Positions 2,429 through 57,380 of a DNA stretch of 64,000 bases are shown here, piece by piece (the stretch's first letter is position 1; every line of letters begins with the position of its first letter). The notes beneath the pieces are model-generated. The model was not told the origin of the DNA, did not search any database, and saw only the letters and a program-made list of their open reading frames with translations. The position numbers and the translations under genes were made by a program. Origin of the DNA: Candidatus Moraniibacteriota bacterium (lineage in GTDB: Bacteria > Patescibacteriota > Minisyncoccia > Moranbacterales > UBA1568); NCBI GenBank assembly GCA_016699385.1, contig CP064974.1, forward strand, positions 195,242 to 259,241, written 5' to 3'.

Positions 2429-2570
2429 AGCGCAGTATAATCAGATTATTCTTTCTGCCCCTTATTGTACGAAAAAAGAGTAAAGAAGTCGAGGTGCGCG
2501 GATGAAAGAGGTGTAATCGGGCGTAGCAGGGGTCTTCTAACCCTTCGTGAGAGGAGAACGCTTTGTGGTC

Positions 2571-2600
2571 TTGACAAAACATTGTATTATGCGTTAATAT
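2571..2600 (+). promoter_or_regulatory. Sigma70-type promoter: TTGACA, 17-18 nt spacer, TAATAT
   Basis: TTGACA at 2571-2576 and TAATAT at 2595-2600, seen directly, upstream of the ATG at 2636. Confidence 0.5.
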
Positions 2601-2635
2601 TATTTCACTCAATTTTATCCGAAGAACGCATCATT

Positions 2636-3790
2636 ATGACAGCCCCAGACACGAGAGCGGAGGGAAAACTCAAGCACAGAACGCGTCAGATTCAGAAGAC
2701 GGCGAAGATGGAGAAAACAGGGAAGATATCTCGAAAGGATGCCTCCTCCCGAGGGTTTTATGGTACGGCATTTCACCGTTTCTTGCACTCGATATCGCCA
2801 CGGGCAGTTGCTATTGTCTCGGCGCGCTACGGCGCAGGCGGGAAGGAACCGATGACGCTCGAAGAAATCGGGAAGACCTATGGCATTACGCGTGAGCGAA
2901 TTCGTCAGATTATCTCGGTACTCCTCGGGAATGTTCGCGCACGTCGTTACCCGGCATCACTCGAGGAAGTATCGAAGCGCATGGAGTCGACGCTCATGGG
3001 CAAAAGTGGTATCATGAAGAGGCAAGTATTTTTTGAAGCGATTGCTGGAACAGACACAAAAGAACAGGGCGCCGCTCGGTTTTTCTTGGCTGTTTTGTCG
3101 GAGCGTTTTCGAATGCTCGAAAGCAATTCGATGACACCTTCTATTGCTGTGGCTTCGTTTGCTGATGCCTCATGGGAGGCAGTAAACACGGCAGCAAAAA
3201 CACTACTTGTCGAAAACGGCGAATCACTCCTCGAAGCAGAATTTTTGAAACGAATCGCCAAACACCCTTCACTCAAAGCGGTTTCTCAGAAGACGATATT
3301 GGATTTTCTCGCGGTGTCGGAAGACTGTCGCAAGAATCCTTTTGGTCAGTGGGGACTTCCTGAATGGAGTGATATTTGTCCGCGAGGAACACGAGAGCGT
3401 GCCTATCTCGTTGTTCGCGCCGAAGGAAAGCCACTGCACTTCCGTGAGATAGCAGCGAAAATAGACCAGTCCGGATTGCAGAAGCCAGGGAAGGTGACGC
3501 ATCCCCAGACCGTGCACAATGAATTGATCAAAGATAAGCGATTTGTGTTGGTAGGGCGTGGTACCTATGCGCTCGTGGAGTGGGGATTCCGACGAGGAAC
3601 TGTCCGCGAAGTTGTTGAGGAAATACTGCGTGAGCGAGGCGTGCCCGTGAAGCGTGATGAGCTTGTGTCTGAGGTGCTCAAAGTTCGCGATGTGAAGGCA
3701 TCTACGGTGGTTATCAATCTCAATGCCTTTTTTGCTCGTACTCCAGAGGGTACCTATAGCTTGAAGGAGTCGAAGAAGCGAGCGAAATAG
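2636..3790 (+). CDS. Sigma-70 region 4-like HTH domain protein with a long C-terminal extension
   Basis: Segment MTLEEIGKTYGITRERIRQIISVLLGNVRA resembles RpoD region 4.2. Start placed at M 2636 (downstream of the promoter) rather than the upstream in-frame M at 2465. Confidence 0.55.
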   Translation: MTAPDTRAEGKLKHRTRQIQKTAKMEKTGKISRKDASSRGFYGTAFHRFLHSISPRAVAIVSARYGAGGKEPMTLEEIGKTYGITRERIRQIISVLLGNVRARRYPASLEEVSKRMESTLMGKSGIMKRQVFFEAIAGTDTKEQGAARFFLAVLSERFRMLESNSMTPSIAVASFADASWEAVNTAAKTLLVENGESLLEAEFLKRIAKHPSLKAVSQKTILDFLAVSEDCRKNPFGQWGLPEWSDICPRGTRERAYLVVRAEGKPLHFREIAAKIDQSGLQKPGKVTHPQTVHNELIKDKRFVLVGRGTYALVEWGFRRGTVREVVEEILRERGVPVKRDELVSEVLKVRDVKASTVVINLNAFFARTPEGTYSLKESKKRAK

Positions 3791-10756: not shown

Positions 10757-13700
10757 TTAGCGTGATGCTGATTTGATGGGATTCTTCTTGACCAACATCG
10801 ACGAGAGAACGGGGACGATGAGGAGGGTGAAGAAAGATGAAACGGCAAGCCCGAAGATGATGGCAGTACCGAGTGCTCGCCATAGGGCATCAGAGAGGGT
10901 GATAGGAATGAGTCCTAATATGGTGGCGAATGAAGTGATGAATATCGCTTCGATTCGAGACTTCCCGGCATCGATAATCGCTTCGGTATGTTCGAGACCG
11001 CTTGCCCAATTGAGATTCATCTTGTCTATGAGTATGATGGCGTTTTTTACGACGATGCCAAAGAGCGCGAGAATGCCGATGAGCCCCGGGAAGGAGAGGG
11101 GGACGTGGAATATCGCCATGCCAACAAAGACACCAATCATAGCAAGTGGGAGTGTTGTAAGGACGATAGCAGCTTGCTTTACAGAGTTGAATTGAATGAT
11201 AAGGGTGGCAACGATAAGTGCGATGGCAATGACGAGCGCGCGCAGGATAGAAGCGACCGACTCTTGATTCTGTTCGTTTTCACCGCCATAGGAGAGGGAA
11301 TAGCCATCAGGGAGATGATAGCTCTCCTTCACTTTTTTCTGAAAGGCAGTGAGGATTTCAGCGGGGCGGACATCGGTATTGACGCCGGCAGAGAGGAGAG
11401 CTGTCCGCTTCTGATCGATGCGAGTGATGGAATCGACGGAGGGTTTGAGTTCGATGGTAGCGAGATCACTGAGGCGAATCATATTGCCGGAGGCATTTCG
11501 AAATTCGATATTTCGCACATCATCGAGTGAAGGTATTGAGCGTTCGGCGAATCGGGCATTGACGCTGATTTCTTTGTTGTCGCGCAGGACAGTAGTGACT
11601 TCGATGCCGGAAATTGCCATGCGAAGCGTGCTCCCAACACTGGTTGCGTCGAGTCCGTAGTAGGCGAGACGGTCATGATTGAGTGTAAAGGTATAGTCGG
11701 CAGGAGCATTCTTGAGTGAGCTATTAATATTAGTCGTGCCTGGGATAGTCGCGAGAATGCCCTTGAGGTCGCGTGCGATTTCGTCGATGGTTTTCAAATC
11801 GTCACCCGATATTCGTGCTTCGAAGGCGGCTCCTGATGGAGGACCACCCTGCTGGCTTGCGATGCGGATATCGGCATCTTTGATGTCAGAGACGTCAGTG
11901 CGCAATGCGTCGGCAATCGCAGAAGATGTGCGACTCCGGTCATGCTTGTCGGAGAGTTTGATGACGATACCGGCGAGGTGTGAGGAATTTCCACTCGTGC
12001 TTCCGGTGCCATCTTGGGAAACGCCGGCATTTCCGACGACAGTAGAGAAATTCACAATTTCGGGATAGGCAAGAAGCTTGTGTTCAACCTGTTGCACGAT
12101 AGTGTTCGTCTCATCGAGTTTGAGTCCTGTGGGAGCTTCGACATTGACAAAGATGAGATCTTCATCAGATGCGGGGAAGAATTCGACGGGCACGATGCCA
12201 AGTACGGGCAATAAGACGGCGCTTATGAAGATGGCACCGGTTCCGATGAGGACAGTCCATTTGCGCCGAGTGCTCGAAAGGACGCTTCGAAGCAATCTCT
12301 CATAGGGCGGAATAATGCGATCGAAATGGATGATGCCATGGATGAATCGGTCCTTGAGGGTGCCGTTTTCGCGATTTCCTGCTTCTTTGAGACGAGTTTT
12401 TATGAGGTTTTCGTCAGCCCATTCCGCGTCGACGAGTGCGGAATTATTTGCAAGAAGAATCTTTCCTTTGCGGAGGAAATACCAGAGTAGGAGTCGTATC
12501 GCGATAATGAATGACACTCCTGCAATGGCAAATCCCCAGAAGTTTCTGAAGGAAAGACCGTATGTGCCGAGTCCAAGGAGAAAAATCGTTGCAATGATAA
12601 ACCAATTTTTGGTAAATCGAATGCGCTCAAGTGCGGCGGCAAGTGGGTGATTGATCATGAGAGCGATACCGAGAGATGCTGTCAGTGTGACAGAAACGGT
12701 GACCGGAATAGACTTGATGAATTGTCCAATAAGACCGGTTGCAAGGAGGAGCGGCAAGAATGCCCACATCGTTGTGAGCGTCGTGGTCGTGAGGACGACT
12801 TTGAAATCGCGAAGCACCAGGAGTACGGCTTCTTCTGGGGTGAATTTTCCGGTTCGGAGGTATTGTTTGGTTGCCGATACGACGACGATGGCGTCATCGA
12901 CCAGGAGTCCCATGGACAAGAGAAGGGAGAAGAGCGAGAGAAAGTTGAGGGATATACCAGAGAGAAGCATCGTGCCGAAAGTGATAAAGAAAACAAGTGG
13001 AATAGTGAGTCCGGCAATGAGCGCTTCTTTCAGTCCAACGATGAGAATAAGCGTGCCAACAACGAGCCCGACCGTGAGGAAAAAGTCGCGAGTCAGTTCG
13101 TCAAAGTTTTTGCGAATTTCTTTGGCGAGGTCGACGGTCGTCGTCCATTCTACGCCTCCGGGGAAACTCGCAGATAATTGACTCATGGTCTTCTCTGCTT
13201 CATCGACAGTTTCAATGATAGATCCGCCGGTTCGTTTTGTGATATCCAATGTGACCGCGCTTGCCGGGATTGATCCACTGATAGAGAGTCGCGAGAGAAC
13301 GGTTCGTTTTATGGCACGTTCTTCTACGGTAGCGATATCCTTGAGGAGTACTGCACCGCCATTTGCTGAAAATCGAATGGGAATATTTCCGAGGGTGTCT
13401 GCGTTGAAGAATCGCGCATCGGTTCGCACGGGGTAGGAGAATCGCGACCCGTCGAAAGTACCGGCGGGAACGGCGCGATTGGTAAGAGCGATAGCGCGAT
13501 TGGCTTCGTCGGGGGAGATGCCAAGTGCGGAGAGTTTTGCCGGATCGTAGGCGACGGAGAATTCGCGTTCATCACCGCCGGAGACTTTTACTTCTCGGAC
13601 GCCGGGGATTTTCTTGAGTTCATCACTTGCGGTGTCGGCGAGTGATCGAAGAGCGAGCCCGTCGATTGGACCGGAGAGGGCGATAGTGAGTATTGGCTGA

Positions 13701-48564: not shown

Positions 48565-48786
48565 GTGACTTGGAAGATGCAAGGGCATGGTGCGATCTTG
48601 GGAATAGAAGAGCATTCTCAAGGAAATGTCGAATCGACAAGGAATCGGCGACCACTTGAATTGCTTTGTTATGAAGCCTACTCTTTCAAAGAGGAAGCCC
48701 TGGGGAGAGAAAAATATTTGAAAACAAGTGATGGAAAAAAAGACCTGAAGAAGAGATTGACAAAAAGTTTTACGGAAGGGTGCTAG
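48565..48786 (+). pseudogene. GIY-YIG nuclease family protein, N-terminally truncated remnant (GIY strand missing), overlapping the tRNA-Ser 5' end
   Basis: EEHSQGNVESTRNRRPLELLCYEAYSFKEEALGREKYLKTSDGKKDLKKRL matches the C-terminal two-thirds of small GIY-YIG proteins (R..xP..L.Y.E.F....A...E..LK...G). GTG start directly after the upstream stop in the same frame. Confidence 0.55.
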
Positions 48787-48860
48787 AGTGGTCGAATAGG
48801 ACAGTCTCGAAAACTGTTGTACCGGAAACGGTACCGTGGGTTCGAATCCCACCCCTTCCG
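48774..48860 (+). tRNA. tRNA-Ser (anticodon CGA), type II tRNA with long variable arm; no encoded CCA
   Basis: Cloverleaf folded by hand: acceptor GGAAGGG/CCCTTCC, D-stem CUA/UAG, anticodon stem ACAGU/ACUGU with loop CUCGAAA, variable stem-loop UACCG-GAAA-CGGUA, T-arm GUGGG-UUCGAAU-CCCAC, discriminator G. Confidence 0.9.
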
Positions 48861-50330
48861 CATTTGTTCAATATCCGCCGTACCCCCTGCTTTTTCAAGT
48901 ATGCGGTACGGCTGTTTTAGTGTATACGAAGCCATCTCGCCATTTACAATCGTCGCGTTCAAAAGTACCGTTTCCAGTACCTTCCTCTTTTTCACATCAT
49001 CGCCCTCGATAAAATCCTTTTCCGCACCAGAAGCGGACAAAAAGACTTTTTTCACCTGTTCTAAAGTGCGAGTCATGGTTTCGGGATTGTGCCTCTCCAA
49101 TTCCTTGAGTCGCTGTTGTATCTCGGCGGTTTCTTTGTTGAAGGCTTCCAGCTTCGCGTCTACGGTCTCTCCCGCATACTTTCCCGCCAGTTGGATATCA
49201 AGAAGCCTCATCTCTTGTTGTGCGAGTGTCTCGCGCCGTTTTTCGAGGTTTGACTTCATGGTTTCAAAGAAACTCCCGTCTTTTTTGTTTTTCTCTCGGT
49301 CGGCTTCGTAGCACAACTCGATGAATTCTTCGTCAAAGTGAATTTTCTTGAAGATTGAGGCAAGTATTTTCTCGGCTTCTTCACTTCGCATATACTGCTT
49401 GTGCGCTTCACAGTTTCCTTTCCCATTGGTGCAGTAGTAATACGTGAAGCCTTTCTTCTCCATGGCGGTCATGAGACACCCGCACGAATGACAGGTCATA
49501 AAGCCTCGCAAAGGGAAAAAATGTTTCTTGTATCGGCTTCTGTTTTTTCCCGTGAAAACATCCTGTGTCTTCTCAAACAATTCTTTGGATATGATGGTTT
49601 CGTGATTGCCCGAATAATATATGCCGTGGACATACATGATGCCGTGATAGAAAGGGTCTTTGAGAATTTTCTGAATTCTTCCTTTGCGATATTTGTACCC
49701 GCTTCGAGAACGGAAGCCTTCTTGAAAAAGCAGGTCGGATATTTTTTTGAGGCTATAACTTCCCGAAGCGTACAATTCAAAAGCCCTCTTGATAAAGGGG
49801 GCGCGTTCGGTATCAACGAGTATCGTTTTGTTGAGTCGGTCGTTGAGGTATCCAATTTTGGCATAATTGGGGTAGCCGCCATTTTCCAGTTTCGACGCCA
49901 TGCCTCGCTTTACTCGTGTACTCAAGGTGCGGATTTCCTGATTTGCTTCTCCGGTTTTAACACTGAAAAGTACGGCGTCATCGCTTGGCAGATAGCATTT
50001 CTCCATCGTCTGAATTTCCTTGATGATTCCTTCCTGCAAAAGCCACAGGATTTTTCCGCTGTCTATCGGGTTTCTCGAAAGGCGGTCTAATGCCCAGCAG
50101 ACAATGCCGTCTGCTTCGCCGTCTTCAATCATTCGTATCATTTCCGTAAACATCGGGCGATTGTAGGGTTTCTTGGCGGACTTGGATTCGGCGAAGACTT
50201 TGATGATATTCAAGCCCAATTCACTTGCCCGTCTTTGCATGTTGCTGATTTGCGATTCAAGGGAGAGGGCTTGCCGATTCTTGTCTTCGGAAGATTTTCG
50301 GACGTAGAGGAGGTATTTCATAGTGTCCAT
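48783..50330 (-). CDS. Large serine recombinase (resolvase/invertase catalytic domain, recombinase domain, zinc ribbon); annotated C-terminus reads through the tRNA
   Basis: N-terminal YVRKSSEDKNRQALSLESQ (catalytic Ser context), C-terminal CHSCGC...YYYC zinc ribbon; 515 aa. The last ~25 aa are the translated tRNA complement, so the true end is probably earlier. Confidence 0.9.
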   Translation of the reverse strand: MDTMKYLLYVRKSSEDKNRQALSLESQISNMQRRASELGLNIIKVFAESKSAKKPYNRPMFTEMIRMIEDGEADGIVCWALDRLSRNPIDSGKILWLLQEGIIKEIQTMEKCYLPSDDAVLFSVKTGEANQEIRTLSTRVKRGMASKLENGGYPNYAKIGYLNDRLNKTILVDTERAPFIKRAFELYASGSYSLKKISDLLFQEGFRSRSGYKYRKGRIQKILKDPFYHGIMYVHGIYYSGNHETIISKELFEKTQDVFTGKNRSRYKKHFFPLRGFMTCHSCGCLMTAMEKKGFTYYYCTNGKGNCEAHKQYMRSEEAEKILASIFKKIHFDEEFIELCYEADREKNKKDGSFFETMKSNLEKRRETLAQQEMRLLDIQLAGKYAGETVDAKLEAFNKETAEIQQRLKELERHNPETMTRTLEQVKKVFLSASGAEKDFIEGDDVKKRKVLETVLLNATIVNGEMASYTLKQPYRILEKAGGTADIEQMRKGWDSNPRYRFRYNSFRDCPIRPL

Positions 50331-50355
50331 AAGCTACCGAAAACAAAGGATAAAA

Positions 50356-51123
50356 TCAAGCAGACGAAGCATTGAGACGAAAAATCGCGTAGAAAATTTC
50401 TCCGAGGTAATTGCTGGTAAATGTCGTTTCCCACCCATTTTCCATATTTCCAGCATTCTCTTGCATGAAAACTCGGGCGTCGTCGTTGACGATTTCAACT
50501 GGTCTTTCCAAATCCTGTGAACAAAAAAACTTCTTCTTCTTGCCAAGCATTCTTTTGTCGAACATATCTTTCTGCAGGTACTTTGACAGGTATCGTCCCA
50601 AGTTGGAAACATGCCGTACTCGCTTGATTTTGATAAACCCATTGCCCCAAATTTTCTCGATTTCCTTGCTTCTTACATACCGCAAGTTGCAAAGCAGGTG
50701 GTAATGCGCCGCGCCGCCCTCGGGTTTCACGTTTCCGAAAAAATCCACGTCTTTCTGAAATTCCAAGACGGCAAAGTACTGAAACTCGGGAAAGCGGTCT
50801 TTCATGCGCTGGGTGAAGAGATTAAAACAGTGATTCGATTTTTTTCCGTCGGTTATCTTCGAGGTGAGTGTCAAAAACTTTGTGAGTTGTGGGTTTGAGT
50901 TTACAGTCCGTCGAATTTCTCGGCGAGTACGTCGAACGGAGGATTCCGCTTTTTCCGTCTGACCTTTTTCTTCTTTCTTGTCGTTCTCATTTTTTTCTCG
51001 TTTCCTGCGTTTGTAGTTGCGAAGGACGGGTCGGTCTTTGTACTGGTATTGTTCGCATTCAAAACCAGAAACCACCACTTTTTCATAAATTCTCTCGGTA
51101 TACCTTCCCGTAGATGTGTTCAT
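50356..51123 (-). CDS. Rolling-circle replication initiator (HUH endonuclease superfamily Rep)
   Basis: Motif 1 FLTLT, motif 2 AHYHLLCN (HUH), motif 3 GRYLSKYLQK (catalytic Tyr-x-x-Lys). Confidence 0.65.
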   Translation of the reverse strand: MNTSTGRYTERIYEKVVVSGFECEQYQYKDRPVLRNYKRRKREKNENDKKEEKGQTEKAESSVRRTRREIRRTVNSNPQLTKFLTLTSKITDGKKSNHCFNLFTQRMKDRFPEFQYFAVLEFQKDVDFFGNVKPEGGAAHYHLLCNLRYVRSKEIEKIWGNGFIKIKRVRHVSNLGRYLSKYLQKDMFDKRMLGKKKKFFCSQDLERPVEIVNDDARVFMQENAGNMENGWETTFTSNYLGEIFYAIFRLNASSA

Positions 51124-51127
51124 AGAA

Positions 51128-51430
51128 TCAAGTTAAGAGAGGAACACTGGGTGCTTGCATTTCCCTCGCTGGCGCGTCAAGGTCGTGCGCCTTCGGCGCC
51201 TCCACCTTGACCCGCACTCGGGAAATGCGGGTACCCTCATAGGTTTCCTTCGGAAACCTTGTTTCACCGGAAGCCACAGGGGAACGGGTGCCATAAGAAA
51301 ACGCTGAATACAAAGTCGCCATCGAAGCAAGGTACAAGTCGGCTTCTTCATGGTTTATCGTTTCTCCGTGGACGCGGAGGAAGTACTCGATAAGCTTGTC
51401 TCGGAGGTTTTGGGTGAAGGAGTAGGACAC
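51128..51430 (-). CDS. Hypothetical small protein
   Basis: ORF track only; overlaps the candidate origin hairpin, so coding status is doubtful. Confidence 0.2.
   Translation of the reverse strand: MSYSFTQNLRDKLIEYFLRVHGETINHEEADLYLASMATLYSAFSYGTRSPVASGETRFPKETYEGTRISRVRVKVEAPKAHDLDAPAREMQAPSVPLLT
51163..51223. promoter_or_regulatory. GC-rich nested hairpin immediately upstream of rep (GTCAAGGT...ACCTTGAC enclosing GCGCC-TTC-GGCGC): candidate replication origin (dso/sso)
   Basis: Inverted repeats seen directly; position relative to rep fits RC-plasmid origins (inference). Confidence 0.3.
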
Positions 51431-51496
51431 AAAAAAAGACCGTATTGATTTACGGTCTTTAGGGTAGAGAGTTTTGAGGGGACGGTATAAGGCGCG

Positions 51497-52207
51497 CTAG
51501 GTTTTCTTGGGTGATATGCAGTTTGCGCCTTTTTTAAGCCTTGTGATGATGTTTAGAATATCCTCATAGTTGAGTCGTGGTATTTTGTACTTTTCGTTTA
51601 TCTTCGACGCAATGTCTTGTGTTTTCATTCCTGCTTTGTAAAGGCTGAATATTTCCATGTCTCTTTCCAAGTTTTTCCGTCTGTTTTTTCTCCCGAGTTT
51701 TCTTTGCGCCAAGATTTCTTGTTGAGCCCTTTTGATTCTTGGCCAATTGGCTTTCATGTCGCCCCACGACGTTTCGGGGTATATTTTTAATGGGATAACT
51801 CCTCGTGTTTCCGTGGTTGTAAAATATGGGTTGAGGTGCCACATTTCTGAACGTAACTTGCAATTATTCATGTTTCCTTCTTGAACAAGATACAGGATTG
51901 CCAATTGGTATGACTCCGAGAGTATGTATTTTTCTCTCAACGCTTTCACGTCTTTTTTCAAAGGTTCGAGTACGTCCAAGAGGTGTTTCGGCGTACCATC
52001 TTTTTCTCTTTGTTCGGGAGGGGCGGGAAAATGGTATTTTTCCTGCAATACGCGTATGTCTGCCATGAAGTCGTCGTCCGTCATCAAAAGGGAGACTCCT
52101 TGGAGAATTTTTTCTTCGAAGGTGAATTTGGGAGGCATAGGGAAGGTATTTTCTAGGTCAGTGAAGTTATAGGGTATTTTGAGGTTGGTGTCAAAGTGAA
52201 GATGCAA
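51497..52207 (-). CDS. Hypothetical protein with C-terminal HTH-like segment (element 1)
   Basis: 236 aa; C-terminal MKTQDIASKINEKYKIPRLNYEDILNIITRL resembles a DNA-binding HTH. Confidence 0.4.
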   Translation of the reverse strand: MHLHFDTNLKIPYNFTDLENTFPMPPKFTFEEKILQGVSLLMTDDDFMADIRVLQEKYHFPAPPEQREKDGTPKHLLDVLEPLKKDVKALREKYILSESYQLAILYLVQEGNMNNCKLRSEMWHLNPYFTTTETRGVIPLKIYPETSWGDMKANWPRIKRAQQEILAQRKLGRKNRRKNLERDMEIFSLYKAGMKTQDIASKINEKYKIPRLNYEDILNIITRLKKGANCISPKKT

Positions 52208-52356
52208 AGAATGAGGCTTTATGAAGCATTTTTACTGTATTTTCGTGAGTGGGTATTGACTAATAAAAGAGAATATTATATACTCCACAGTTATCGGAAA
52301 CGAAAACCCGTATCACGTCGGCCACGTGAAGAGTACTTTAATTTCGAGGTATCGTC

Positions 52357-52653
52357 ATGGCACAAGTCATTACAGAAGGTAGCGTTCCTTCACCGGAAGA
52401 GTGGTCTACGCAGATTAAATGTATTGGTAGCGGTAGCGATGAAAGTAAAGGATGTGGTGCCATACTTAAAGTTACTAAGGACGATGTAGTCTTGATGAAG
52501 TGGTATGGCACTCACTTCAAGCATCACTATCCGGCGACTCAATGTCCGCGCTGTTTGAAATACACTTACATCAAAGAACTGCCTGATACCATCTGGAAAC
52601 CACTCCTGAAAAAGGGAAAGGCTATTTTTGATGGGGTTGATGACCGTATTTGA
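52357..52653 (+). CDS. Hypothetical zinc-ribbon protein (element 1)
   Basis: CIGSGSDESKGCG ... CPRC cysteine pairs; 98 aa. Confidence 0.35.
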   Translation: MAQVITEGSVPSPEEWSTQIKCIGSGSDESKGCGAILKVTKDDVVLMKWYGTHFKHHYPATQCPRCLKYTYIKELPDTIWKPLLKKGKAIFDGVDDRI

Positions 52654-52807
52654 CGGACAACAACTTTTCCTATCTCGAACACAACTGTCCACACAGAATG
52701 GCGCAATAACCTCGAGAACACGAAGACATCTTGACCGATATGCCCTGTGCGTATCGGTCTTTTTTATGCTACAGTTAGCTGATTTGAGAAATGGCTTTGA
52801 TACACTA

Positions 52808-52843
52808 AATACGTTCTCACTTCGTCCCACCCCTTCCGCCAAT
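52808..52843 (+). repeat. attR-like repeat 1: TACGTTCTCACTTCGTCCCACCCCTTCCGCCAAT (partial tRNA-Ser 3' end)
   Basis: 34-bp sequence identical to 56453-56486; 15-bp core TCCCACCCCTTCCGC identical to the tRNA 3' end. Confidence 0.8.
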
Positions 52844-53281
52844 TTTCATTTTTGTTCGAAACGGTAGAACGTGGAGTGTTGCTTCGTGGTGCGCTCGCTC
52901 TTGTTATTTCGGACAAAAGTAAAAAAGTAAGCAATGCGCGCCTCGCGTTTCCGCTGCTTTGTAAACAGAGGCGTCACAATGGGATCTTTATGTTTTTTAG
53001 CTTGGGATTTGTTACCTGTGTATAGATTTGTGTCGTCCGTATATTGCTATGCCCCAAAAGCTCTTGCACATATCGAACATCGGTACCGTTCTCTAAATTT
53101 CGCTTCACCCCATTCTTTCACGATGCTCGGCGCTGACGCCCGCTCTTAGAAAGAATCCGATTTTGTTTTTCTTTTATTGTAGAGGGGAAATATGGAGTTT
53201 TCTCCGCTTCGCTACGAAAACATTTATCTTATAAGGGAAAAACGGACATAATGCAATTGCTTAGTTTGAAAAATAATAAAT

Positions 53282-53965
53282 ATGAACCCACTTAAAACAA
53301 ATGGTCTAATAATACAGAGCTTTCCGCAAGAGAAATATGAATCTATTCACCTTATTTTAAGTAGCAGATATGCAGAAAAGAATGAATACGAACATTTTTC
53401 AGGAGCGTGGAATGCTATAGCATATCGATACAGAGGAGCAATTGACTATGGAAGTGATTTCGTCAAATTAATAAAATTATACGGAACAGCACCACAGCCA
53501 GAAAAAAGATATTTACAAGAACAAGCTCTTTTTAATCATTTCAGTTCTTGCTTTTCAGTTTTTGAATCAGTGTGTTATGGATTTTTTGCGATAGGATCTA
53601 TTATTAATCCAGAATATTTTTCCATAAGCGACAAAGCTGATCAACGAAAAATATCTCCAGAAACAACAAAAAAAACTTTTCAAAAGGCATTTCCTGATGA
53701 ACAAATCACTAAAACATTAATTGAGTTAACTGCCGATTCAGAATTCGAAAATATTAGAAATACTAGGAATATTCTTATTCATAGAACAGCGCCGGGAAGA
53801 AAGATTTATCTACACATAGGAGAGGATGAATCACTCCCGACAGAATGGAAATTGAACAATAAACCCTTAAATGAATTGATAGTCAAATCAAACGAGGATA
53901 GCATGGAAATGCTTTTAAATAATTTACTAACTGCAGGAGAAGTTTTTTGCAGGTCACATTTATAA
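53282..53965 (+). CDS. Hypothetical protein with C-terminal HEPN-like R-N-x3-H motif (NIRNTRNILIHRT): candidate RNase toxin / abortive-infection effector
   Basis: 227 aa, AT-rich codon usage; the motif was seen directly but the HEPN assignment is by motif only. Confidence 0.45.
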   Translation: MNPLKTNGLIIQSFPQEKYESIHLILSSRYAEKNEYEHFSGAWNAIAYRYRGAIDYGSDFVKLIKLYGTAPQPEKRYLQEQALFNHFSSCFSVFESVCYGFFAIGSIINPEYFSISDKADQRKISPETTKKTFQKAFPDEQITKTLIELTADSEFENIRNTRNILIHRTAPGRKIYLHIGEDESLPTEWKLNNKPLNELIVKSNEDSMEMLLNNLLTAGEVFCRSHL

Positions 53966-53969
53966 TTAT

Positions 53970-54953
53970 ATGGCACGTAAAAATATTTTAAAAATACCAG
54001 CTAAAATAAGAAATCAGATAAAAACATTTAGTCAGGATGATGTTGTTGTAGCTTGTGTAAAATATATTCCAAAAGAAGAAATTCATAGATGCAAACATCT
54101 GAGGATACGCTATATTGACGGCGAACTTATTCTCCCACCTTCGGAAACCCCAAATCCTAATACCGGGAAATTTTCTCGGGCAAACCTGGAAGGTTTGGAG
54201 AAAAAAAGAACTGATTTGCCAAAAATATCAAAAGAATTCAGCTCTGAAGCTCCAAATTGGAATGGAAATGGTGCGCATGTTGTTTCTTATTCGCGAGATG
54301 TATATCGAAAAGATTTTTATCCACCCAAAGAAGTTGAGTTGAAAATTGAGCAAATAGAAAAAAGAGAGCATGGTTTCAAAATAAAATTTTTAATTGATCA
54401 AGTAATTAATCGAAATACTCCGAATTTTGAAAAAGAATTATTGTACAACTTAAATTTATTACAAGAAAACGTTGGAATGATAGATGTCTTTCCGAGTATT
54501 GCAACTTTGGCAGATTACGCAAAAACCGTTTATATTGATTGGGAAATATTACCGCCAGGAACCGTTGATGAAATTATAGAAGCTTTGCTAAAGAACCAAA
54601 AAACAGAAAGTATTACCCCAGATCAAATAAAAATAATGAGAGAAAGAATAGGTGTTATGTCAAAATTAAAGCCCGTTGTTTATATAAAAGGTACAAATGG
54701 TTTTTTAAGATATTTTGGGGCAAAGTTCGGAGATGATTTTGTTGTTTTTGAAAATATAAAATATGGAAACGCCTTATATATAATGTATAATTCATGGGCG
54801 GAGCTAAGTAAAAAAAGCAGGACAGAATTACTCAATGGACCAAGAGAAGACTTTGATCGCATAGAACATAGAGATGGATGGGGTGATGTTTTACAAAAAT
54901 TTGTTAGAGAATATAGGCGTAAAAACAAAACTATAAATGAAGGGCTATTTTAA
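53970..54953 (+). CDS. Hypothetical protein (327 aa), operon partner 4 nt downstream of the HEPN-like gene
   Basis: No recognisable motifs; tight coupling (stop at 53965, start at 53970). Confidence 0.45.
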   Translation: MARKNILKIPAKIRNQIKTFSQDDVVVACVKYIPKEEIHRCKHLRIRYIDGELILPPSETPNPNTGKFSRANLEGLEKKRTDLPKISKEFSSEAPNWNGNGAHVVSYSRDVYRKDFYPPKEVELKIEQIEKREHGFKIKFLIDQVINRNTPNFEKELLYNLNLLQENVGMIDVFPSIATLADYAKTVYIDWEILPPGTVDEIIEALLKNQKTESITPDQIKIMRERIGVMSKLKPVVYIKGTNGFLRYFGAKFGDDFVVFENIKYGNALYIMYNSWAELSKKSRTELLNGPREDFDRIEHRDGWGDVLQKFVREYRRKNKTINEGLF

Positions 54954-55304
54954 AGAAATTTAATTAGAAACCAATTTCCTGTACATGACAAATAAAAGGA
55001 GTTTTTGATTTTTGGCATGCACCCCTACCTCTCTGGCCAAAATCCAAAACAGAAAAAGAAATTTTAAAATTTTTTAAAACAATTCCGACATTAGTCGGAA
55101 AAAAGAAAAGGAATACATCAGCTAACAACGAGTATCCGGTTACGGCTTTTACACAAAAGCCTCCATCCAAATTTTTCCTCCGCTACGCTACAGAAAAACT
55201 TCGGATACTCGTAACGTTAAGTGACATATTTCCAAGTCTCTTTTTTAGAATAAGGAACGAGTGAAAAATTTTCTTTATTTTAATGAGGGGAAATAAGGAA
55301 TTTT

Positions 55305-55580
55305 CTCAGCTTCTTCACTCCGCAAATATCGCTTGCGCGCTTCACAGTTTCCTTTGCCATTGGTGCAGTAGTAATACGTGAAGCCTTTTTTCTCCATGGC
55401 GGTCATGAGACATCCGCACGCGTGGTAATTCATAAAGTCTCGAAGCGGAAAGAAATGCTTTTTGTATCGGCTTCGATTTTTTCCTGTGAAAACATCTTGC
55501 GCCTTCTCAAACAACTCTTTGGAAATGAGAGTGTCGTGATTGCCCGCGTAATATATCCCGTGGACATAGCCTGCCTGCTT
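55305..55580 (-). pseudogene. Serine recombinase gene remnant (internal zinc-ribbon region only)
   Basis: 79-aa ORF MFEKAQDVFTGKNRSRYKKHFFPLRDFMNYHACGCLMTAMEKKGFTYYYCTNGKGNCEARKRYLRSEEAEKI is ~90% identical to residues of the full recombinase at 49380-49650; nucleotide similarity extends about 270 bp. Confidence 0.8.
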
Positions 55581-55620
55581 GTGGTAATGTCAAAATGTAA
55601 AAATTAGGTAAAATAAAAAT

Positions 55621-56337
55621 ATGAATAAAAATATAAGAACAGAGATTGCTGTGGGAATAATACTTGTCATTTTTATTGTTATTGTGGGTTTTATTTGGCT
55701 GGGTAGCAAACAGCAAACATTGGATTCAGTAGTTAAACCCGTGGTCAAATCCGTAGAAAATCAAAGTATAACTGAAAAGAAAAGTCTTCCAGCAACTCTT
55801 TCTTCTTCTGCTGCTGGTAGAGATACGTCTGGACGTGAGCTTAAAGTCGAAGACATATCAATTTCAAATGTTAAATTCACTTTGCCAAACTCAACCATTG
55901 ATTCCCCTGTAAAAAATAATTTTTCATTTCAAAATGTAAAAAAATATACGTTGACGACGCCTACAGGAGTCGCACCAATTTTTTATGTTGACGACCAACC
56001 ACAGAGAGACGGGACTGTTAAGAGTGTAGAAGTGGATGTCCCAAGTGGAAAATCTATAATAGGCGTCAGAGTAATAGTTAGCAACGAGAAAAACACTGCT
56101 AGTTTGTCAATAAACCCGAATTTTCTTTTATCAGTCAATGATATAAAAGTAGCCCCAGTTAACTATAATGTTGCTAGCTTTAGTATTCCGGGTGGGGCTT
56201 CGGTTGAATTTGAGTATTTATTTGCAGTGGGTGAAAAGACAAATACTTTCGTATTGAGTTTTGGCGAAAATACGGAAAATCCAGAGGGTCGACTTCTTGT
56301 TGACTTTGGGCAGAAAAATTTTACCTCATTAAAGTAG
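55621..56337 (+). CDS. Hypothetical membrane-anchored/secreted beta-rich protein (element 2)
   Basis: N-terminal TM IAVGIILVIFIVIVGFIWLG then a Ser/Thr/Asn/Val-rich domain. Confidence 0.45.
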   Translation: MNKNIRTEIAVGIILVIFIVIVGFIWLGSKQQTLDSVVKPVVKSVENQSITEKKSLPATLSSSAAGRDTSGRELKVEDISISNVKFTLPNSTIDSPVKNNFSFQNVKKYTLTTPTGVAPIFYVDDQPQRDGTVKSVEVDVPSGKSIIGVRVIVSNEKNTASLSINPNFLLSVNDIKVAPVNYNVASFSIPGGASVEFEYLFAVGEKTNTFVLSFGENTENPEGRLLVDFGQKNFTSLK

Positions 56338-56451
56338 TTTTTTTGCTTCTCACACAGTGCTTATCTTGAAGCCTCCACATAGGAGGCTTTTTGTTTCCAA
56401 AAATTTATCGTACAATCATGGGTACTTGGTGGAATGATGGAAATTGAAGCA

Positions 56452-56487
56452 CATACGTTCTCACTTCGTCCCACCCCTTCCGCCAAT
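56452..56487 (+). repeat. attR-like repeat 2 (second partial tRNA-Ser 3' end copy)
   Basis: Identical 34-bp sequence to 52809-52842. Confidence 0.8.
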
Positions 56488-56890
56488 CTCAAGTTGATGA
56501 AGAAACACTAATTCAGATAAAAGAAAAAATTAAGGATAATTTAAAGTAGTGCCCCTTTGTCTGACTTTCTCGCTATCGCTCGAACCACGCTTCGCTCTTA
56601 CTTCGCTACGCTACATTCGTGTCTTCAGCAAGAGATAAAAGAAAAATTGCTCGGCTTGAGATCCCTCCTAAATTTCTTTCGCTACATTCCGCAAACTTCT
56701 CATAATCCTGACGTTATTCGCAATTTCACTTTGCTCCATTGCGAATAAAGCCTGCGGATGATAATCTTGCTATTCTCCTCCATTTCGCTTCGCGAAACTC
56801 CGTATAACAGCGAGATATTCGAAATTTTCCTTTCAAGAATTTCATTTCTTTTCAGAAAAACGTCGCATCATCCGTAGGCGTTATATTCAA

Positions 56891-57380
56891 TTCGGGCTGG
56901 CTCGCAAAACATTTAAATCCTTGCAATTTTTACTATAATTATGACTATGAAAATATATTTTGCTGGTTCAATTCGTGGCGGAAGAGGTGATAAAGATTTA
57001 TATCTTCAGCTAATCCAACACCTCGCTAAACATGGTAAAGTTTTAACTGAACATGTCGGCGATGGAAACCTAACAGAGATCGGTGAAGACGGCCCCAATG
57101 ACGAATATATCTACGAGCGTGATATGGATTGGGTTCGCCAATCAGATGTTGTTATTGCCGAAGTTTCCACACCATCGCTCGGTGTTGGATACGAAATCGG
57201 AAAAGCTGAGGATATGAACATAAAAATGTTGTGTCTTTATAGGAATCAGCAAAATAAAAGATTATCTGCAATGATTAGTGGAAATCCAAACGTAAAAATT
57301 GCAAGATATGAAACTTTTGAAGATGCAGTTTCTCATATTGATAGTTTCTTTGAATCATTGAAGTAGCGAGCCAGCCCGAA
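56891..57380. repeat. Perfect 15-bp inverted repeat TTCGGGCTGGCTCGC / GCGAGCCAGCCCGAA flanking a single gene, plus roughly 25-bp direct repeats GCA(A/G)ACTTCTCATAATCCTGAC(G/A)TTA at 56692-56717 and 57464-57489
   Basis: Seen directly at 56891-56905 and 57366-57380; the right arm begins inside the stop codon. Confidence 0.8.
56941..57366 (+). CDS. Nucleoside 2-deoxyribosyltransferase family protein (DNPH1/Rcl-like)
   Basis: KIYFAGSIRGGRGD ... E catalytic pattern typical of 2'-deoxynucleoside 5'-phosphate N-hydrolase / NDT family. Confidence 0.7.
   Translation: MTMKIYFAGSIRGGRGDKDLYLQLIQHLAKHGKVLTEHVGDGNLTEIGEDGPNDEYIYERDMDWVRQSDVVIAEVSTPSLGVGYEIGKAEDMNIKMLCLYRNQQNKRLSAMISGNPNVKIARYETFEDAVSHIDSFFESLK

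Follow-up and report, generated by a model that had tools for sequence, protein, structure and literature searches.

A HEPN-like protein gene and a partner gene of an unannotated family form a transferable cassette that joins restriction-modification operons in some of its relatives

The window analyzed here, a stretch of 64,000 nucleotides from a Candidatus Moraniibacteriota genome, carries two adjacent forward-strand genes that we call P1 and P2. P1 (positions 53282-53965, + strand, ATG start) encodes 227 amino acids and is predicted to specify an all-helical, HEPN-like RNase effector, and P2 (53970-54953, + strand, ATG start) encodes a predicted alpha/beta protein of 327 amino acids from an unannotated family. 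Inspection of the sequence placed both open reading frames where an earlier note, made from the letters alone, had put them, with P2 starting after a gap of 4 nt past the P1 stop codon. The sharply lower GC content that the same note ascribed to the pair was also evident, at 0.30 to 0.33 over 53250-55000 versus 0.42 to 0.52 in the flanks. Judged by the limits of DNA identity to four relatives, the horizontally transferred two-gene cassette extends from 53261 to 54957 (+ strand) and has a GC content of 0.319, compared with 0.484 for the genome upstream, 0.455 for the genome downstream, and ~0.48 for the genome as a whole. P1 and P2 are genuine conserved genes under purifying selection. Single-sequence searches recovered 65 clusters at 90% identity for the P1 family and more than 600 for the P2 family, and dN/dS was 0.10 to 0.20 for each gene; both lie far above what chance would produce. 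No promoter or terminator signals above background were detected near the cassette, and the interval 52800-56600 held no tandem repeat array scoring >46 and no Rfam match besides tRNA. We therefore rejected a type III toxin-antitoxin system, in which the antitoxin is an RNA, because neither a repeat array nor a structured RNA lies beside the cassette in this interval.

The cassette sits on DNA whose likely point of entry is a tRNA-Ser(CGA) gene (48774-48861, + strand), which was identified by ARAGORN, scored 56.6 bits against the Rfam tRNA model, and appears to be the integration site of tandem elements. The 15-nt core at the 3' end of this tRNA gene, TCCCACCCCTTCCGC (48847-48861), occurs again at 52825-52839 and 56469-56483, in both cases enclosed by a copy of a perfect 35-nt direct repeat (52809-52843 and 56453-56487). 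We read this region as two integrative elements in tandem. The first, E1 (48862-52843), carries a large serine recombinase gene (48783-50330, - strand) that is intact and encodes Resolvase, Recombinase, and Zn-ribbon domains, together with a rolling-circle-type Rep of the ORF2/G2P family (50356-51123, - strand). The second, E2 (52844-56487, without strand), delimited by the 35-nt repeats, would be a recombinase-less integrative mini-element; besides P1 and P2 it contains a recombinase remnant of 269 nt and the gene of a membrane-anchored protein. The remnant (55300-55568, - strand) is 86% identical in DNA sequence to positions 49366-49634, an internal part of the intact recombinase gene, and gives a weak Zn_ribbon_recom match; the "decayed integrase" of the earlier note is thus genuine. 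Its placing of the pair within a mobile element, next to this remnant, is likewise supported, and the pair is foreign to the genome that carries it. The E1 recombinase may be able to mobilize E2, which has none of its own.

A membrane-anchored protein had also been described downstream of P2, and its gene is indeed present in E2 (55621-56337), but it is not kept beside the pair in other genomes. Since it is not conserved there and DNA similarity stops at P2, we rejected this protein as a member of the module. A conserved third gene was rejected more generally because the genes 3' of P2 do not cluster; a PD-(D/E)xK gene follows the pair in some Parcubacteria loci only.

HEPN domains are defined as four-helix bundles, many of them interrupted by an insertion after helix 2 and before helix 3, in which an Rx4H motif at the end of core helix 3 marks the defining position, and conserved R, N, and H residues are the hallmark of catalytically active families (Anantharaman et al., PMC3710099). 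The motif string of P1, NIRNTRNILIHRT, occupies residues 157-169 of 227 instead of the C terminus, where the earlier note had located it. Conservation and helix position identify the Rx4H motif as R162-N163-I-L-I-H167, encoded at 53765-53782 on the + strand. Among 54 aligned P1 sequences of the clade paired with P2, every sequence has R162, H167, and R168, and at least 90% have N163; W43, N44, A45, Y48, R49, R76, Q79, E80, and E95 are likewise shared by all 54. The same pattern extends to 18 P1 sequences of a clade that lacks P2 (the solo clade), in which R162 and H167 again never vary and at least 90% of the sequences keep N163, with one solo member carrying histidine in its place.

The AlphaFold2 model of P1 was confident and all-helical (pLDDT 90.5), with helices at residues 34-67 and 73-108, a helical insert at 109-152, a helix at 153-166, a loop, and a helix at 198-226. 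R162 lies inside helix 153-166 and H167 is the first residue of the loop that follows. The model therefore agrees with the HEPN-like helical fold around the R and H residues that structure prediction had been suggested to check, with the motif ending the third core helix. The invariant E80 and E95 both fall in helix 73-108 and do not form an Ex3[KR] pattern. In its sequence and predicted topology, P1 appears to fit each element of the HEPN definition, leaving aside how near the acidic residues of helix 2 lie to the motif.

Only one Pfam family matched P1, namely HEPN_Cthe2314 (PF18730), at an E value of 2.6e-4 and a score of 21.5 bits, which is below the gathering score of 27.1; the alignment pairs P1 residues 103-172 with profile positions 63-128. 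This family was matched at E ≤ 0.01 by 7 of the 54 P1 members, and a P1 profile searched against PDB sequences gave no match. A profile of the divergent, solo-clade members retrieved 195 further relatives of P1, and a precomputed Pfam domain was absent from the 120 of these that were listed, so a bridge from P1 to a curated HEPN family through the solo-clade profile was rejected. The position of the motif, its invariance, the predicted fold, and the subthreshold match to a Pfam HEPN family bear out the description of P1 as HEPN-like in the earlier note. We consider it probable, with good confidence, that P1 represents a new, uncurated HEPN-like family whose fold and motif are correctly assigned. 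By its conserved residues, P1 is predicted to be a metal-independent endoribonuclease with R162, N163, and H167 as its active site.

P2 belongs to a much larger family. An exhaustive profile search collected 1,585 representatives (at 50% identity) at E ≤ 1e-3, a number that is a lower bound on family size, and 286 of them were retained at E ≤ 1e-30. The best 150 of the 1,585 matches were single-stretch alignments to proteins of at most 351 amino acids, mostly ~320, with no added domains. In a scan of one genome per species, P2 was found in Patescibacteria, Alpha- and Gammaproteobacteria, Acidobacteriota, Streptomyces, Clostridium, Bacteroidales, Planctomycetota, Chloroflexota, a Nanoarchaeota MAG, and others. 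Y248, Y270, and H300 are invariant in 131 diverse representatives, and at least 90% of the same set share N72, K85, E166, W191, R226, E261, N262, N267, W276, S280, R284, R297, and W304.

As the earlier note had stated, P2 has no recognizable domain in any library tried. Searches of the P2 protein of the window against Pfam, NCBIfam, PADLOC, and PHROGs returned nothing, and searches of Pfam with 10 distant homologues and the 131 diverse representatives returned nothing useful. The sole recurring Pfam match in the family, to DUF3106, is weak, occurs in 13 of the 131 members, and is taken to reflect the basic C-terminal helix of P2, making it uninformative. P2 profiles searched against PDB sequences gave only noise, and no fold match to the BFVD viral structures was obtained at E ≤ 0.001. 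Given that P2 has no assignable fold or chemistry, the role that we propose for it below is conjectural. The earlier note had named a conserved phage structural module as the competing identity for the pair; we rejected it, since P2 had no match in phage genomes (0 of 50,697 records), no PHROG, and no BFVD fold. Its matches in IMG/VR numbered 2 among 2.9 million contigs, P1 had none in IMG/VR or PHROGs, and ten plasmids carried P2.

The two genes travel together. The genome scan (one genome per species) contained 22 loci in which P1 immediately precedes P2, with gaps of -4 to +17 nt, and P2 lies directly downstream of P1 in 45 of 70 metagenomic P1 loci. Across 19 loci, the pairwise identities of P1 and P2 correlate with r = 0.95, and P2 is the more conserved protein in 97% of the comparisons. 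In a neighbor-joining tree, all 20 P1-linked P2 sequences, including one that sits beside a decayed P1, group in one clade from which all other P2 sequences are excluded. One metagenomic locus (L126) encodes both proteins as a single in-frame fusion in which P1 positions 3-220 are joined to P2 positions 126-321. The cassette of the window is 82 to 91% identical at the nucleotide level to four Parcubacteria/Paceibacterota loci whose flanks are unrelated to those of the window, and in these four loci the similarity sets in 11 to 21 nt ahead of the P1 start codon (ATG) and extends no further than the P2 stop codon. Since the GC content of the four genomes (0.28 to 0.37) matches that of the cassette (0.32), the copy in the window looks like a recent import from low-GC Patescibacteria. 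The two genes are therefore inherited and transferred as one unit, and the sequences indicate that the P1-P2 partnership had a single origin and was retained through transfers between phyla.

In its close relatives, this unit is attached to restriction-modification (RM) operons. Seven metagenomic loci have a P1 that shares at least 80% identity with that of the window; in every one of them, a type I hsdR-hsdM-hsdS operon ends 5 to 9 nt before P1, and the same operon precedes the pair in loci L006, L007, and L091. In Sphingomonas mesophila (L001), the pair instead follows a type I system with the gene order hsdM-hsdS-hsdR within an island that contains integrases, and in a Saccharibacteria MAG (L008), it follows an EcoP15I-like, type III mod-res operon after a gap of 2 nt. 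The pair is thus appended to an RM operon in L006, L007, L091, L096-L102, L001, and L008, and this operon linkage holds in the window's own subclade as well as in L001 and L008. Given that three RM architectures are involved and that their hosts are very distant from one another, functional recruitment is a better explanation than chance adjacency. Because the pair is combined with more than one type of RM system, a specific physical contact like that of PrrC-EcoprrI is less likely. Hsd genes were absent from the flanks examined of all 14 more distant paired metagenomic loci, and the 64-kb window contains no Hsd homologue. The position of the pair at the end of RM operons is invisible from the window alone and is the most informative context that we encountered. 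A large neighbor in another locus (L011) was considered as an RM subunit and rejected, its one PDB match being to a SecA peptide at its C terminus.

Both families also occur alone. No P2 was detected at 24 of the 70 metagenomic P1 loci, which are the most divergent ones (31 to 39% identity to the P1 of the window); this solo arrangement is robust in at least 13 loci, comprising ten in which the sequence continues for >1.2 kb downstream and three that were checked on long contigs. Solo P1 genes have no conserved neighbor, and the motif RN[IV]L[AT]HR is present in 23 of these 24. Most P2 loci are solo as well, and outside the P1-linked clade most lack a conserved neighbor. Genes for LexA-like repressors (wHTH plus S24) nevertheless lie directly upstream of solo P2 in 6 loci, and HTH plus ImmA/IrrE gene pairs resembling CapH/CapP recur in this position. 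CapH/CapP are DNA-damage-responsive regulators found upstream of diverse immune operons (10.1101/2022.04.27.489752; PMC13228613). One solo P2 adjoins a type II RM system (a C5 methylase plus R.HinP1I) downstream of recA|lexA; other solo P2 genes have GajB-like helicases, a type III methylase, or DRT and SMODS proteins as neighbors, and a Sinorhizobium plasmid places one near a Gabija-like ATPase plus helicase, Lit, and DUF4145. These defense-island neighbors and the RM operons show that the wider genomic setting is that of defense genes, as the earlier note had surmised. Novosphingobium profundi (L012) has an intact P2 preceded by no more of P1 than its final ~46 codons, so loss of P1 is tolerated and P2 persists without it. 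Because both families have free-standing members, neither protein strictly needs the other.

We compared the pair with known systems. P1 resembles the Cthe_2314-like HEPN proteins (PF18730; PMC3710099) in being all-helical, in its Rx4H motif, which closes core helix 3 and whose R is followed by a polar residue, and in the insertion that separates helices 2 and 3. It differs from them in scoring 21.5 bits against the curated threshold of 27.1, with 7 of 54 members matching, and in having a conserved partner and RM linkage, whereas no conserved operon is given for Cthe_2314 (PMC3710099). As in PrrC-EcoprrI and RloC, the close relatives of P1 place a predicted HEPN-type RNase gene in or at the end of a type I RM operon. 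According to the PrrC-EcoprrI model, the latent RNase is a back-up for when restriction is defeated, and the same back-up logic has been proposed for at least 16 RM-linked HEPN clades (PMC3710099). P1 nevertheless has only a helical domain in its 227 amino acids and no N-terminal ABC-ATPase regulatory domain, so the pair cannot be counted as a member of the PrrC/RloC group; it also differs in having a separate 327-amino-acid P2 and in occurring after a type III RM operon and without RM genes. By analogy, the module would work most like PrrC and RloC, the RM-linked HEPN nucleases.

The gene layout is also that of HEPN-MNT systems, but P2 is not a nucleotidyltransferase and no MNT gene lies beside P1. 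The solo P1 clade is similar to the single-gene HEPN defenses (ApeA and those of the AbiD/F/V type); in contrast to these, no PADLOC model matches P1, and the P1 of the window belongs to a clade in which P2 is an obligatory neighbor. Solo P2 genes directly downstream of CapH/CapP-type or LexA-like regulators recall the immune operons that such regulators control, whereas the clade of the window has a HEPN gene upstream of P2 and its cassette is accompanied by no regulator. Searches of P1 and P2 against PADLOC-DB v2.0.0 (2023) gave 0 matches at E ≤ 1, the databases consulted dating from 2023 for PADLOC and 2025 for Pfam. Literature searches on RM-linked HEPN nucleases and on HEPN proteins and defense in Patescibacteria yielded no account of the pair, allowing for a very recent description. 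RM-linked HEPN modules as such are known; what appears to be new here is the P1-P2 pair with its unannotated partner family.

These observations suggest that P1-P2 may be a restriction-coupled, abortive-infection-type module with P1 as the HEPN RNase effector and P2 as the component that couples it to a signal, an interpretation to which we give an even chance. That the pair is a new anti-phage module is plausible. Once switched on, P1 would cut cellular or phage RNA and halt growth, producing an outcome of the abortive-infection type. P2 might hold P1 inactive until triggered, or it might sense failed restriction or DNA damage, and it may have an enzymatic activity of its own. We infer the role of P1 as effector, the part of P2, and the anti-phage phenotype from the features described above. 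The P2 family would consist of defense-island and mobile-element cargo proteins, with P2 in this case co-inherited with P1, and the native setting of the module would be at the end of RM operons. The pair in the window would have left a type I RM operon in a Patescibacteria donor of low GC content, and the degenerate mini-element integrated at tRNA-Ser would now carry it in its Moraniibacteriota host. A bolder version, which we put forward only tentatively, is that P2 is a new immune component with a fold unlike solved structures, either sensing DNA damage or the failure of restriction or acting as a new enzymatic effector, and that the pair is a new restriction-coupled abortive-infection system that became attached to type I and to type III RM operons in independent events across bacterial phyla, CPR included.

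Both families occur alone, and solo P2 lies right behind LexA-like genes (6 loci) or HTH plus ImmA/IrrE genes, as toxic immune effectors do; P2 moreover has an enzyme-like set of conserved polar residues (Y248, Y270, H300, E166, E261, N262, R226, R284, and R297). These features would suit two independent single-gene defense factors that share an operon and are co-transcribed without acting on each other, with P2 as a self-sufficient harmful effector, hence its placement under DNA-damage-responsive repressors in other lineages, and P1 as a self-regulated HEPN RNase comparable to the single-gene HEPN defenses. We regard this as unlikely, however, since the tight coupling (gaps of -4 to +17 nt), the co-divergence (r = 0.95), the single origin of P1-linked P2, the joint transfer, and the one fusion suggest a functional partnership over mere co-location. 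The solo genes bear differently on a classical toxin-antitoxin addiction module that stabilizes mobile elements, in which P1 would be a HEPN toxin and P2 its antitoxin, either an inhibitor or an MNT-like modifier. Integrative elements do carry the pair, genes of plasmids or mobile elements occur in its vicinity, its two genes are tightly coupled, P1 was lost while P2 was kept in L012, and HEPN toxins are well known (PMC3710099). Since solo P1 exists, though, P1 is not an obligatorily neutralized toxin, and since P2 usually occurs alone, is better conserved than P1, and has a far wider distribution, it is not a dedicated antitoxin. With both families occurring alone, P2 being the more conserved and widespread, and MNT features being absent, a simple toxin-antitoxin system fits poorly and strikes us as quite unlikely. 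The earlier note had called the surroundings typical of abortive-infection or toxin-antitoxin modules; the HEPN assignment and the defense-type context uphold this in general, but not its toxin-antitoxin half in simple form.

The roles could also be reversed, with P1 a noncatalytic helical scaffold or regulator that uses its RNxxxH-R motif for binding and controls P2 as the true effector. We consider this highly improbable, because R, N, and H are kept across the paired and solo clades, which is the hallmark of active HEPN families (PMC3710099), and because P2 outlives the loss of P1 in L012 and is mostly P1-free, showing that it can do without regulation by P1. Housekeeping genes surround some of the solo loci and CPR genomes are poorly understood, which would leave room for a passively transferred module outside biological conflict, concerned with RNA processing or mobile-element maintenance. 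The patchy distribution over many phyla, the GC content foreign to the host, the repeated independent recruitment to type I and type III RM operons, and the defense-island neighbors all speak against this explanation and make it the most improbable of those considered.

A restriction-coupled module of two genes would be informative beyond this locus. In 2013, HEPN RNases linked to restriction systems were reportedly predicted to provide a second line of defense and, to our knowledge, few RM-linked HEPN modules other than PrrC and RloC have been characterized. The pair is compact and testable, in that the predicted catalytic motif of P1 can be mutated. Nature supplies variants on type I RM operons, on type III RM operons, and without RM genes, as well as solo genes under DNA-damage-responsive regulators. 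Solving the role of P2, whose family has more than 1,500 diverse representatives and is annotated by no database, would annotate a sizeable share of defense-island dark matter and could show how an RNA-targeting back-up is wired to DNA restriction. We know of few defense-like cargo modules documented on the mobile elements of ultra-small CPR bacteria, and this locus would be one. A sequence identical to P1 is recorded in a Candidatus Moraniibacteriota MAG under the label hypothetical protein, which is also every database name that we found for homologues of P1 or P2.

In a Saccharibacteria MAG (L008, 4303-10972; positions in loci from other genomes and metagenomes are given in each locus's own coordinates), the genes for P1, the HEPN-like predicted RNase, and P2, its unannotated partner, begin 2 nt downstream of EcoP15I-like mod and res genes. 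This locus is a type III restriction-modification operon with P1-P2 appended. Separately, in a Gammaproteobacteria MAG (L030, 7973-12817), recA is divergent from a lexA-like gene, and the latter is followed co-directionally by a P2 gene without P1, then a C5 cytosine methylase gene, and then an R.HinP1I endonuclease gene.

A co-directional gene encoding a PD-(D/E)xK nuclease of ~250 aa lies a few nucleotides past P2 in L091 (7660-8430) and L092 (2102-2872), and L007 carries a gene of comparable size at the same place (10971-11720). Since the genes downstream of P2 in L091, L092, and L007 showed no sequence clustering across loci, we rejected the PD-(D/E)xK gene as a conserved third component.

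The pair was also encountered in a possibly fused form and in a decayed one. A single open reading frame in L126 (1337-2533) covers positions 3-220 of the P1 profile and 126-321 of the P2 profile; it is either P1 and P2 fused in frame or the outcome of a deletion. In L012 (Novosphingobium profundi, 2477-3593), P1 is reduced to its C-terminal ~46 codons, which are 65% identical to Sphingomonas P1 and lie immediately 5' of an intact P2. P1 homologues that lack P2 form a clade (L146, L150, L152, L155, L157, L162, L164, L166-L168, and L175-L177) whose members are 31-39% identical to the P1 of the window and retain RN[IV]L[AT]HR. The genes around these solo P1 loci include patatin, PIN/PhdYeFM, and ParB, and no conserved neighbor gene was found among the listed loci of the clade.

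In the window, the AT-rich P1-P2 cassette is flanked by a 45-nt imperfect direct repeat of 78% identity (53166-53210 and 55269-55313), the right copy of which adjoins the recombinase remnant. The repeat may be the mark of an insertion event, or it may be a chance product of AT-rich DNA. Just beyond the right end of the tandem integrative elements E1 and E2, where GC is still low (0.34-0.40), lies a gene of the nucleoside 2-deoxyribosyltransferase family (56941-57366; Pfam E = 3e-15).

E1 is an integrative mini-element of ~4 kb at tRNA-Ser(CGA) (48774-52843) that encodes a large serine recombinase (48783-50330, minus strand), an ORF2/G2P-family rolling-circle Rep (50356-51123, minus strand), and three small unannotated open reading frames. 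For a CPR genome, it is unusual that a serine recombinase and an inovirus-type Rep occur together. The final ~25 codons of the recombinase gene overlap the tRNA-Ser(CGA) gene on the opposite strand. Also opposite tRNA-Ser is an Rfam match to Plastid-psbI-rps4 (48809-48860, minus strand) that, at 44 bits, falls short of the gathering score (68 bits); the tRNA sequence almost certainly accounts for this spurious match.
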